Assembly: GCA_030684555.1 (NCBI GenBank)
Contig: JAUXVN010000071.1
Location: 4,197-68,196 of the forward strand
Direction of reading: 5' to 3'
From: Ignavibacteria bacterium
GTDB taxonomy: Bacteria; Bacteroidota; Ignavibacteria; Ignavibacteriales; Ignavibacteriaceae
DNA length: 64,000 bases
Within the stretch, counting starts at the first letter, position 1; each line of letters begins with the position of its first letter. A program made the position numbers and the translations under genes. Positions 10,184 to 13,100 of the stretch are shown piece after piece. The notes under the pieces were generated by a model, which made no database searches, had not been told where the DNA came from, and worked only from the letters and a program-made list of their open reading frames with translations.

Positions 10184-13100
10184 ATGCACAAACTAATTGA
10201 AAACGACATAGAACGCTTTGCTATTGAGCAGCTTGAACATCAAGGCTATCAGTACGTCTACGCCCCCGATATTGCCCCGGACTGTGAAAAACCGGTGGTA
10301 CATCCCTTTGGGAAACGTAAAACTTTTGAAGATGTATTATTGATTGAACGGTTGCATAAAGCAGTTGGAAGAATAAATCCCAAAATACCCGCCGAAGCAA
10401 GAGAAGAAGCTGTAAAACAAATAGAGAGAATAAACTCCCCCGAATTAATAGCCAATAACGAAACATTTCACCGTATGCTAACAGAAGGAATAAATGTAAC
10501 TTATCAAAAAGATGGGAATAGGAGAGGTGATTTAGTTTGGCTGATTGATTTTAACAATCCCGATAACAACGATTTTATTGTAGCAAATCAATTTACTGTT
10601 GTTGAAAACGGCATAAACAAACGCCCCGATGTAATTCTTTTTATAAACGGTATTCCGTTGGTTGTAATAGAATTAAAAAATGCAGTTGATGAAAATGCAA
10701 CAATTCGTTCTGCATTCAGACAAATAGAAACTTATAAACAGACTATACCAAGTTTATTTACTTATAATGGTTTTGTAGTTATATCAGACGGACTTGAAGC
10801 TAAAGCCGGGACAATCTCTGCCGGTCTAAGCCGTTTTATGAGTTGGCCTGTCTGCGTGCGTGCCCACCTTCGTCCCCGGGTCGGACAAACACGCACAGCC
10901 AGAAAATCTATTGACGGTAAAAAAGAATTCTATACATACGTGCTAAGATGTGATAATGAAAGTCTATATATAGGGCAAACAGAAGATTTAGAAAAAAGAT
11001 GGAATCAACATATTAGTGGTGAAGGTGCAGATTGGACTAAAGCGCATAAACCTTTAGAGATTATACATCATGAAATTTATTCTACTAGAGAAGAAACCGT
11101 TGAAAGAGAAAGATGGCTTAAAACTGGTTTTGGTCGCAAATGGATTAAAAGAGAAATTGCTGCAAAAAGAAATAGAGTTTTTCCTTTTGAAAAGGTACCA
11201 GAGCGAGCCTCGCATCTTATAAGTGAGTTAGAGATACTCATTAACGGAATGCTAAACAAAAAAACAATGCTCGATTTATTAAGGCACTTTATTGTCTTCG
11301 AGAAGAATAAAAAAGAAGATTTACAAACCAATCTTACAGTTATTGAAACAACAAAGAAATTAGCTGCATACCATCAATATTATGCGGTGAACAAAGCGAT
11401 TGAAAGCACGTTGCAGGCAACGAGCTTTCAACCCTCCCTCAATCCCTCCCAAAGGGAGGGAAGCAATTATAGGGGCGGATTAAAGTTTACCGGAATGATT
11501 GAACAAGTTAGAGAACTTCGCAAAAATCAAACCAATACGGAAAAAATATTTTGGGAAGTAGTTAGAAATAAAAAATTTCTCGGTCTTAAATTTAGAAGAC
11601 AACATCAGATTGGGCATTACGTTGTGGATTTTTATTGTCATTCGGAAAAATTAATTATTGAATTTGATGGAGAAGTTCATAATACAATAAAACAGAAAAA
11701 GAAAGATGAAATTAGAGATAAATATTTAACCTCACTTGACAACAAGGTTTTACGATTCAAAAACGAAGAACTTATAAATAACCCTGACTTAGTATTAAAT
11801 AAAATTCATCAAAATATCTCAAAGCTCCCTTCCACCATTGGGGGAAGGGTTGGGGTTGGGGGTTATGGAAGCCGCAAGGCTGGAGTAATCTGGCATACTC
11901 AAGGAAGCGGAAAATCTTTATCAATGGTATTTTATACCGGGAAAATAGTTTTAGCGTTAGACAATCCTACAATCTTAGTAATAACTGACCGTAACGATTT
12001 GGATGATCAGTTGTTTGATACTTTCGCTGCATCAAAACAATTATTAAGACAAGACCCGGTACAAGCAGAAAACAGAGGACAATTAAAAGAACTGCTTAAA
12101 GTTTCATCGGGGGGAGTTGTGTTTTCTACTATACATAAATTCCAACCGGATGAGGGGAATGTATATGAGGAGTTATCGGACAGAAAAAACATAGTTGTAA
12201 TTGCTGACGAGGCGCACCGGACTCAATATGGGTTTAAGGCAAAGCAGATTGATGATAAAGATGAAGATGGAAATATAATTGGTAAAAAGACCGTTTACGG
12301 TTTTGCAAAATATATGCGGGATGCTCTGCCTAACGCTACTTATCTTGGTTTTACCGGAACCCCTATTGAAAATAGTGACGTGAATACCCCGGCTGTATTT
12401 GGCAACTATATAGATGTTTATGATATTGCTCAAGCAGTGGAAGATGGTGCAACAGTTCGTATTTATTATGAAGGAAGACTTGCAAAAATAAACCTTAGCG
12501 AAGAGGGTAAAAAACTTGTCTCTGAATTGGATGATGAACTCGATTTAAAAGACTTATCATCAGCTCAGCAAGCAAAAGCAAAATGGACACAGTTGGAAGC
12601 GTTAGTAGGGAGTAAAGACCGAATTAAACAAATCGCTGCCGATATTGTTGCTCACTTCGAACTTAGGCAAGAAGTATTTGAAGGGAAAGGAATGATAGTT
12701 TCGATGTCCAGAAGAATCGCTGTCGAACTATATCGAGAAATAATAAAACTAAAACCGGCATGGCATAGTAATGATTTGAATAAAGGAACAATTAAAGTTG
12801 TAATGACAGCTTCATCTTCAGATGGTCCCGAAATGGAAAAGCATCATACAACAAAAGATCAGCGTAGAGTTTTGGCAGATAGAATGAAAGCTCCCGCAGA
12901 TGAATTGAAACTTGTGATAGTTAGAGATATGTGGCTTACCGGATTTGATGTCCCTTCACTGCATACACTTTATATCGATAAACCAATGCAAGGGCATAAT
13001 TTAATGCAAGCTATTGCGAGGGTTAACCGTGTATATAAAGACAAACCCGGTGGGCTTATTGTTGATTATCTTGGTATCGCATCTGATTTGAAAAAAGCAC

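Follow-up and report, generated by a model that had tools for sequence, protein, structure and literature searches.

A DUF559 nuclease cassette between BoxC/PIT/TM-type repeats in the hsdR gene of an Ignavibacteria bacterium: a probable mobile element

The hsdR gene of a type I restriction-modification (R-M) operon in an Ignavibacteria bacterium carries an in-frame insertion that encodes a DUF559 (YcjD/Vsr-like PD-(D/E)XK) domain between two short G+C-rich hairpins. The gene lies in a 64,000-nt stretch, hereafter the window (GenBank assembly GCA_030684555.1, contig JAUXVN010000071.1, positions 4,197 to 68,196). Comparison of alleles indicates that the insert is a mobile cassette rather than a fixed domain: near-identical hsdR alleles differ by the presence or absence of inserts, and at least three insertion sites are used in hsdR. 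We think it probable that it is a selfish mobile nuclease cassette of ~435 bp, lodged in a loop of HsdR, that spreads by homing with occasional jumps to new sites. An earlier note on this DNA, made from the sequence alone, had proposed a transposable cassette, a view now backed by presence/absence alleles, the use of several sites and hosts, terminal inverted repeats and solo copies. The assignment of the hairpins to the BoxC/PIT/TM repeats, the co-travelling host flanks and the recognition of a GIY-YIG insert in the same gene as a second cassette go beyond that note.

Extent, ends and nuclease core of the insert

The cassette was delimited by DNA alignment of the window with two empty alleles (L001, L003) and one filled allele (L002). 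The insertion point reads ACG AGC TTT / CAA CCC ... GGG GGT / TAT GGA, where slashes mark the junctions, and the host residues TSF/Y correspond to SAE/N of the empty alleles, which read ...YHQYYAVNKAVERTILAS-AEN-GTRKGGVVWHTQGSGKS (the empty site of L001 is GTAGAAAGAACTATTCTTGCCTCTGCGGAAAACGGTACAAGAAAAGGCGGC). The peptides, the hairpins and the 148 codons at 11420-11863 given in the earlier note were all exact on direct reading; the boundary is refined by the empty alleles to ~11429-11863 (435 nt). We call this position site A; a second DUF559 position, site B, lies ~35 residues upstream. In an alignment with EcoR124I HsdR the insertion loop follows the helix behind the Q motif and precedes the strand that leads up to Walker A. 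The host helix YHQYYAVNKA, conserved in all homologues, aligns with the EcoR124I segment RPYQIAATERI, which we take to be the Q motif. On the other side GVIWHTQGSGKS of the window aligns with the EcoR124I Walker A segment GGYIWHTTGSGKT, and the insert ends six residues ahead of it, in agreement with its reported location directly before helicase motif I. In a sister clade of the HsdR family the same loop is by nature 30-40 residues longer. The insertion site is a naturally length-variable surface loop of HsdR, and the host gene is left intact.

The DUF559 domain (HsdR residues 441-545) matches PF04480 with E=5.3e-34 and 116.8 bits (cutoff 20.6) over profile positions 6-108 of 109. The YcjD equivalog PRK09767 scores just 72-77 bits on the module against a cutoff of 218, so the module is not a YcjD orthologue. 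Every one of the 20 columns that are invariant among 30 aligned family members is kept, including D48, E59, D61, H65 and D74; loss of catalytic residues had been named in advance as the sign of a decayed relic, and the conserved catalytic-core residues are intact. In the Protein Data Bank (PDB) the module matches 3HRL (E=5e-15). An AlphaFold2 (AF2) model was built on HsdR residues 331-850; its host helicase part is poor (mean predicted local distance difference test score, pLDDT, 59) and it was used for the insert and its linkers only. In it the DUF559 domain has pLDDT 91-97 and the peptides on both sides fall below 50, so that the nuclease is modelled as a compact, confident domain between low-confidence, Pro/Ser/Gly-rich segments encoded by the repeats. 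Foldseek aligned the modelled domain with 3HRL (TM-score 0.89, root-mean-square deviation 1.4 A) and with the catalytic domain of the homing endonuclease I-Bth0305I (TM-score 0.74-0.77). Profile search, invariant residues and modelled structure thus bear out the DUF559/Vsr-type fold first read from the sequence. Between the window and the site-A alleles L002 and L005 the ratio of nonsynonymous to synonymous substitution (Ka/Ks) of the core is 0.07-0.10, with synonymous sites saturated (proportion of synonymous differences, pS, 0.69-0.71). The core is under purifying selection, as is the host part, with Ka/Ks 0.05-0.06 in the same comparisons. The domain is predicted to be an active nuclease from its fold and conservation; we found no report in the literature of a biochemically characterised close DUF559 member.

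What are the hairpins at the two ends? TM repeats have an architecture of the type CCCTCTCCC-loop-GGGAGAGGG-nn-GGGGTGAGGG and also occur as inverted doublets (PMC4666352); E. coli TMECO copies such as CCCTCTCCCTGTGGGAGAGGGCCGGGGTGAGGGC are listed in Table 1 of Holder et al. 2015 (PMC4666352). By sequence architecture the flanks of the cassette are repeats of this known BoxC/PIT/TM intrastrand-triplex class. The 5' hairpin reads CCCTCCC-AAA-GGGAGGG on the plus strand at 11444-11460; the 3' hairpin is CCCTTCC-ACCATTGGG-GGAAGGG at 11827-11849, followed by TTGGGGTTGGGGG to 11862. In the 3' repeat a pyrimidine arm (CCCTTCC) and a purine arm (GGAAGGG) are followed by a third block, GGGTTGG in GGGGTTGGGGG, which matches at 7 of 7 positions; the same repeat also fits a four-G-run quadruplex pattern. 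The cassette ends are inverted copies of one motif type, and their G-rich tails face outward. The module is bracketed by hairpins, as claimed, and with up to three mismatches allowed neither hairpin has a second match in the 64 kb (shuffle expectation 0.01 and 0.00); four perfect G+C-rich hairpins of at least 7 bp exist there, and only the two of the cassette have a pyrimidine arm followed by a purine arm. In single-stranded DNA folding against shuffled sequences the 5' region gave z=-5.8 and the 3' hairpin alone a non-significant z=-1.7. The 33 flank codons have pS 0.18-0.25 and a proportion of nonsynonymous differences (pN) of 0.13-0.19, unlike the core (Fisher p=2e-5 to 3e-4); low pS beside a similar pN means that the flanks are conserved as DNA, not as protein. 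A near-identical 32-nt left end, CAACCCTCCCTCAATCCCTCCCAAAGGGAGGG, is found at site B in L094 and L095 and at site A in L002. An Rfam search placed the whalefall-1 RNA motif on the 5' repeat (11431-11464, minus strand) at 18.4 bits, under the gathering score of 37 (E=0.29); this match is probably at chance level, and whalefall-1 might itself be such a repeat.

A palindrome spans the left junction in every carrier of the window's element type, with element-proximal (G)GCTTTCAA pairing with host-side TTGAAAGC(C). It shows a compensatory change in L002, is kept in L005 and L007, and is rebuilt with another host partner in L096. Other lineages have unrelated junction palindromes (L008, and L095 at site B). 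L002 and L096 have, in addition, a palindrome in the insert-linked right flank.

Distribution among hsdR alleles and other genes

The 120 best HsdR matches and the window's own protein make a set of 121 homologues, 67-91% identical and falling into four length classes. Matches are labelled Melioribacteraceae, Bacteroidetes, Marinimicrobia, Desulfobacterales, KSB1, Brocadiaceae, Halobacteriota and Methylocaldum. No insert is present in 61 of the 121, a GIY-YIG insert only in 18, a site-A DUF559 insert only in 6, both in 3, and a site-B DUF559 insert in 33. Presence at the same position in all family members had been named beforehand as an outcome that would speak against a mobile module; half of the set lacks the segment. 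The GIY-YIG figure (at least 21 carriers of 121) comes from a sequence-motif test and is a minimum, one Pfam-positive protein (P0174) having been missed by it. On a host tree, built by neighbour-joining from host-only columns, the nine site-A DUF559 carriers need at least eight gain or loss changes, the 33 site-B carriers five and the GIY-YIG carriers at least nine.

Host residues next to the insert appear to travel with it. We called a host column carrier-specific if its residue is found in at least five of the six carriers of the window's element type and in at most 10% of the 112 sequences outside the site-A carriers. Just 3 of 1074 columns (I406, A566 and I569) pass, all within 10 residues of a junction. 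The string SRKAGVIW occurs in 6/6 carriers of this element type and is absent from the tabulated non-carriers, where RKGGVVW is near-universal; five site-B carriers have RKAGVVW. Among five more distant HsdR carriers with the cassette at the same site (L005-L009), four have AGVIW and L007 has GGVIW. The pattern in these sequences looks like a co-conversion tract, copied by repair from a filled allele.

Three of the site-A carriers (P0147, P0164 and P0229) hold a second, divergent DUF559 lineage whose flanking peptides are of the SPPLEGWQTKSDGVV type and, by back-translation, come from a CCACCCC...GGGGTGG-like palindrome; two cassette lineages have therefore used the site-A loop independently. 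In L006 (979-1509, from a Bacteroidetes metagenome-assembled genome) the hsdR frame breaks within the cassette's 5' repeat, which leaves the gene split or pseudogenised, and P0001 and P0005 look like similar truncated products. It is also of note that in L002 a Y1_Tnp gene (positions 2455-2916), similar to IS200 and to REP-associated tyrosine transposases (RAYTs; REP, repetitive extragenic palindrome), lies directly 5' of the DUF559-bearing hsdR.

Beyond HsdR, 85 related loci were collected, 5 from genomes and 80 from metagenomes. A perfect G+C-rich hairpin of at least 7 bp is present in 37 of 84 upstream and 44 of 78 downstream flanks; elsewhere in the same loci the rate is 0.07 per 150 nt. 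These figures agree with the statement in the earlier note that stand-alone DUF559 ORFs (open reading frames) often have G-rich ends of this kind. In 133 of the 134 homopurine/homopyrimidine hairpins the pyrimidine arm comes first, and a third triplex block (G-rich, mirroring the purine arm) is found in ~74% of flanking hairpins; the orientation of this tail relative to the nuclease gene followed no consistent rule in these loci. Most close relatives are free-standing ORFs of 113-190 aa, which usually stop a few codons past the domain, with downstream hairpins 20-100 nt further on and often outside the ORF. They have terminal inverted repeats of 21-63 nt, 88-100% complementary, with adjoining inverted doublets that contain no ORF. 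One free-standing gene (L068) is preceded at 2118-2316 by three copies of a hairpin, CCCCTCCT-nnn-AGGAGGGG, with a 90-nt period, in a tandem-array-like arrangement. The linkage of DUF559 to such repeats recurs over many phyla and G+C contents, and an exhaustive search of the DUF559 family gave 22,655 cluster representatives at E<=1e-3.

Embedded relatives lie for the most part in genes for HsdS, HsdM, HsdR and type IIG enzymes. A larger ORF shares the frame of the cassette in ~16 of the 80 metagenomic loci. The R-M hosts are HsdM (2), HsdR (3, one in the helicase domain), type ISP, HsdS, an N6_N4 methyltransferase and an Eco57I/MmeI-like enzyme; the metabolic hosts, in which the cassette is N-terminal, are GlgB, an FAD oxidase, HisF and ArgB. 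Several repeat copies can occur inside a single related locus. In R-M ORFs that carry a DUF559 cassette, solo repeats, translated as LPSxSGRGAGGEG or similar, also lie in frame elsewhere in the same ORF (Table 1); the solo of L020 is identical to the 3' repeat of its cassette, and a type ISP gene in L023 has four copies of a composite unit of ~85 nt. Repeats are read in different frames in different hosts.

BoxC/PIT/TM repeats are abundant in enterobacteria, cyanobacteria and pathogens; to our knowledge they have had no known source since the 1990s and no known spreading mechanism. Holder et al. describe them as intergenic repeats of unexplained origin and found no transposase, integrase or mobility gene near the E. 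coli TM sites (PMC4666352); the E. coli TMECO repeat forms a triplex in vitro by circular dichroism and nuclear magnetic resonance and is associated with genome instability (PMC4666352). E. coli K-12 has TMECO #9 at 168 nt past the 3' end of ycjD, a gene annotated as DUF559, with a duplicated fragment of that 3' end in between. In this locus (L093, NC_000913.3 1351204-1351760) the end of ycjD itself, ...RRSPSP*, falls within a pyrimidine/purine hairpin that is degenerate. The gene is at the fabI-sapF site, which in other lineages of E. coli holds eefRABCD (PMC12817139). We suggest, tentatively, that DUF559/YcjD-type nucleases are the mobility enzymes of BoxC/PIT/TM repeats and form with them a new element class. 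As part of the same tentative proposal, the class would consist of autonomous nuclease units with inverted repeats plus non-autonomous solos and doublets, organised like RAYT-REPIN systems, and would colonise genes in frame, above all R-M genes. No link of DUF559 to BoxC/PIT/TM repeats, nor any DUF559 insert in R-M genes, was found in open-access papers or bioRxiv.

The GIY-YIG insert and the host operon

Upstream of the DUF559 cassette, in the linker between endonuclease and helicase, the same HsdR carries a UPF0213/YhbQ-like GIY-YIG domain (PF01541, residues 249-314, E=1.6e-14; PDB matches 1YWL and 1ZG2). Compared with L003 it has pS 0.48 and pN 0.10. The insertion is bipartite, a hairpin and an ORF being separated by eight host-matching codons (KSIDGKKE). 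The hairpin has a variable loop length among homologues, its minimal form being the 30 nt of L003, CCTGTCTGCGTGCGGGCACGCACAGGCAG; in the window its fold alone is non-significant (z=-1.06). The eight codons amount to 24 nt, reminiscent of how far the I-TevI cleavage site lies from its insertion site, and from this comparison the hairpin might mark or disrupt the GIY-YIG cleavage site. In the fragment P0002 a DUF559 cassette occupies the position that GIY-YIG has in the window. In the GIY-YIG insert the gene has a second cassette, independent of the first and alike in lifestyle. With the native site, one HsdR thus holds three nuclease folds (PD-(D/E)XK, GIY-YIG and DUF559), as the earlier note had it, at the level of domain models and conserved motifs. 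A separate 269-aa ORF just 5' of hsdM (3761-4570, plus strand) has a C-terminal GIY-YIG domain (Pfam E=1.4e-7); BLASTP found no sequence relation between this protein and the hsdR GIY-YIG module (E=0.33).

The window HsdR scores 578.7 bits on the NCBIfam model TIGR00348 (cutoff 284.55) and also matches T1R_D3-like in Pfam; residues D149, E163 and K165 of the PD-(D/E)XK motif are invariant in the homologue alignment, and the GSGKS and DEAH motor motifs are present. Its host part is 85-91% identical to insert-free HsdR proteins of ~1075 aa. By its hidden Markov model match, PD-(D/E)XK site, superfamily 2 (SF2) motifs and operon with hsdM and hsdS, it is classed as a type I restriction enzyme. 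The order DUF3800 gene, 174-aa ORF, hsdR is shared with L001, L003 and L004. Elsewhere in the window the ORF at 15245-16504 has a Por_Secre_tail domain (sorting by the type IX secretion system), which, taken with the best HsdR matches (Melioribacteraceae, Bacteroidetes metagenome-assembled genomes), suggests that the DNA comes from an organism of the FCB group.

Table 1. Positions of the inserts, their repeats and the host genes (window coordinates unless a residue range or another locus is named)
Feature	Position	Strand	Remarks
hsdM of the type I R-M operon	4805-6367		Pfam
Fic/DOC gene between hsdM and hsdS	6470-7615		Pfam
hsdS	7774-8898		Pfam
DUF3800 gene between hsdS and hsdR	8895-9602		Pfam
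ORF of 174 aa between hsdS and hsdR	9568-10092		No assignment
hsdR ORF, host of two in-frame nuclease cassettes	10184-14197	+	Continuous, no stop, 1337 aa
HSDR_N	HsdR aa 6-214		Pfam
Native PD-(D/E)XK motif RPDVILFINGIPLVVIELKN, first nuclease fold	10622-10681	+	Inside HSDR_N
G+C-rich hairpin-type insertion PVCVRAHLRPRVGQTRTAR (PVCVRA...RTAR)	10847-10903	+	Upstream of GIY-YIG; absent from empty alleles
GIY-YIG cassette (UPF0213/YhbQ-like), second nuclease fold	10928-11206	+	In frame, endonuclease-helicase linker
Host helix, proposed upstream homology arm of the insertion site	11369-11398	+	EcoR124I alignment
Left-junction palindrome TTGAAAGCACGTTGC-AG-GCAACGAGCTTTCAA	11400-11431		Host codons (IESTL) pair with junction codons (TSFQ)
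DUF559 cassette, probably mobile	11429-11863	+	DNA alignment with empty alleles; 435 nt (145 codons) that lack a start and a stop codon
5' terminal repeat, BoxC/PIT/TM type, CCCTCCC-TTT-GGGAGGG + ATTGA-GGGAGGG-TTG	11429-11460	-	Translated QPSLNPSQREG
DUF559 (YcjD/Vsr-like PD-(D/E)XK) core, third nuclease fold	11504-11818	+	PF04480
3' terminal repeat, complete BoxC/PIT/TM motif	11827-11862	+	Translated PSTIGGRVGVGG
Host strand and Walker A YGSRKAGVIWHTQGSGKS, proposed downstream homology arm	11864-11917	+	Carrier-specific A566 and I569
SWI2_SNF2	HsdR aa 551-783		Pfam
T1RH-like_C	HsdR aa 979-1333		Pfam
Solo triplex-motif repeats, in frame	L020 1225-1247, 1561-1583		
Solo triplex-motif repeats, in frame	L023 ~1418-1560, 1970-2100		
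Solo triplex-motif repeats, in frame	L037 2399-2421, 3273-3297, 4572-4603		

Mechanism, alternatives and known systems

A homing cycle would run as follows. The DUF559 nuclease would make the initiating cut, at empty target sites or at the repeat structure, and repair from a filled allele would copy the cassette among hsdR alleles by gene conversion. The conserved Q-motif and Walker A segments would act as homology arms, a few flanking codons being carried along. Occasional ectopic insertion, with or beside solo terminal repeats, would take the cassette to new sites, mostly in R-M genes.

Several points weigh against this reading. The mechanism, be it homing, transposition or both, we infer from comparison of sequences, and the carrier-specific flank changes could instead be a local structural adaptation to the insert. 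Patchiness could come in part from repeated loss or from recombination of hsdR rather than from recent invasion, because the three site-A copies compared are anciently diverged, with saturated synonymous sites. No clear target-site duplication was seen in the alignment of filled and empty DNA, which allows at most an ambiguous T or TT at TTT/CAA ... GGT/TAT, and the junction palindromes are not predicted by simple homing. The two end repeats of the window are degenerate as inverted repeats (~50% match by eye), and no further copy of the module or its repeats was found within the 64 kb. Enrichment of R-M hosts (among 68 long proteins of the best 150 matches, Methylase_S 28, N6_Mtase 10, HSDR_N 4 and Eco57I 4) is inflated by the use of an R-M-embedded query and of whole-protein clusters. 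Finally, ycjD, present at one locus in 3378 of 5426 complete E. coli genomes, is single-copy and showed no mobility among them, and the repeats persist without it.

Could the repeats be moved in trans, by an unlinked enzyme of the Y1/HUH kind that serves REP/REPIN-RAYT and IS200/IS605 elements, with DUF559 as a trapped passenger or in some other role? We regard this as rather unlikely. Host genes and the surroundings of cassettes often contain solo repeats and inverted doublets without an ORF, the combination of end hairpins, junction palindromes and no target-site duplication recalls IS200/IS605-type ends, a Y1_Tnp gene adjoins the filled hsdR of L002, and E. coli strains without ycjD keep the repeats. 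Against this, tblastn found no Y1 transposase homologue in the window (best E=0.9), Holder et al. saw neither a transposase nor an integrase close to the TM sites of E. coli (PMC4666352), and the DUF559-repeat linkage has recurred over many phyla and G+C contents. A passive passenger would not need the strong purifying selection seen on the core, and the seemingly co-converted host flanks suit repair-mediated copying better than transposition. It is unlikely, too, that the insert is a domesticated R-M domain, such as an additional nuclease for nicking or repair, retained because it serves the host, with the repeats as mere linkers. Domestication would account for the long-lasting purifying selection on the core (Ka/Ks 0.07-0.10), for the strong enrichment among R-M proteins and for intact insert-bearing hsdR genes in many lineages, yet half of the closest homologues lack the insert, and the cassette occurs at three or more HsdR positions, in HsdM, HsdS and unrelated metabolic genes, and free-standing with inverted repeats. 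A linker role leaves the nucleotide-level conservation of the flanks unexplained, and Vsr-type T:G repair would have no obvious substrate, as type I methyltransferases make m6A (N6-methyladenine).

Two further explanations have very little left to them. Removal of the insert before the mature protein, as an intein, as a group I/II intron or by translational bypass, is the most improbable of all. The insertion does resemble inteins and introns, in which Vsr-like homing endonucleases occur (PMC2677866, PMC3239194), by being in frame and at a strongly conserved position of a conserved gene. We rejected removal on the grounds that Pfam found no Hint/intein domain, that the junctions (F/Q ... G/Y) have no Cys, Ser or Thr nucleophile and no His-Asn end, and that no Rfam family matched at threshold, a search at E<=1 giving only three sub-threshold, chance-level matches. 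Outside the nuclease domain the insert has just ~75 nt at its 5' end and ~45 nt at its 3' end, too little for a ribozyme. No stop interrupts the ORF, and 42 full-length homologues with DUF559 include the linkers as translated sequence. A decayed, now inactive relic of a single ancient insertion is very unlikely as well: in its favour are the degenerate terminal repeats of the window, the ancient divergence of the compared copies and the lack of another copy in the window, but Ka/Ks of 0.07-0.10 and the retention of all invariant residues led us to reject it, and the flanks are conserved at synonymous sites and the distribution on the host tree is patchy. Chance or artefact was rejected by the uniqueness of the hairpins in the window (shuffle expectation <=0.01) and the domain match (E=5e-34), and hairpins as a by-product of selection for Pro/Gly linkers by the synonymous conservation of the flanks, the repeats outside short ORFs and the differing reading frames.

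If the cassette is a selfish mobile nuclease element of the kind proposed, BoxC/PIT/TM repeats would gain a candidate enzyme with a structure-specific substrate, which is testable, and the very large DUF559 family, including E. coli YcjD, a likely role in element mobility. R-M genes (HsdS, HsdM, HsdR, type IIG) are recurrent hosts of in-frame nuclease cassettes over phyla, which bears on the evolution and recombination of defence genes; annotation is affected too, as 'fusion' architectures of this sort are too readily taken for new enzymes. A homing-type element would be tolerated without an intron or intein, its domain looped out on flexible repeat-encoded linkers, and its sites may be a natural guide to permissive insertion positions in SF2 motors.

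How does the cassette compare with known systems? In Methylococcus capsulatus the HsdR protein MCA0838 has a recent GIY-YIG insertion relative to an insert-free homologue 80% identical to it, and Dunin-Horkawicz et al. 2006 suggested that this insertion may be parasitic (PMC1564403). The window HsdR likewise carries a GIY-YIG insert; MCA0838 was reported as a unique case at another position (~800), described without DUF559, repeats or a population pattern. Rickettsia palindromic elements, reportedly described by Ogata et al. in 2000, resemble the solo repeats of L020, L023 and L037 in being tolerated in frame, but they are protein-less and confined to Rickettsia, whereas the cassette carries a nuclease and has hosts over many phyla.

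Closer in organisation are the REP/REPIN-RAYT systems, which Nunvar et al. in 2010 and Bertels and Rainey in 2011 are said to have described. There too a gene sits between inverted short palindromic repeats that are also dispersed as singlets and doublets, and one autonomous element goes with many non-autonomous ones. The RAYT protein, however, is a Y1 HUH transposase, whereas the cassette has a PD-(D/E)XK Vsr-like nuclease, triplex-motif repeats and insertions inside coding sequences. With the BoxC/PIT/TM repeats the cassette flanks share the three-block architecture and the inverted doublets; those repeats are known as intergenic, whereas the cassette copies bracket a nuclease gene and are translated in frame. 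The terminal inverted repeats of an element with such ends, such as a miniature inverted-repeat transposable element, are present in the free-standing DUF559 relatives and loosely similar in the window.

The nearest parallel in behaviour is with the Vsr-like (EDxHD) homing genes such as that of I-Bth0305I, in which a small Vsr-fold nuclease gene likewise lies at a conserved site of a conserved gene (PMC3239194; PMC2677866). Like the cassette, homing genes are patchy among near-identical alleles, and their flanks move with them, as those of the cassette appear to do. By sequence the cassette belongs to DUF559/YcjD and not to the EDxHD family of I-Bth0305I. Homing elements are recognised by neutralisation in an intron or intein or by an intergenic position, and the cassette shows neither. 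It differs from them further in having terminal inverted and solo repeats, several sites and many host genes, and in staying in the protein as a looped-out domain.

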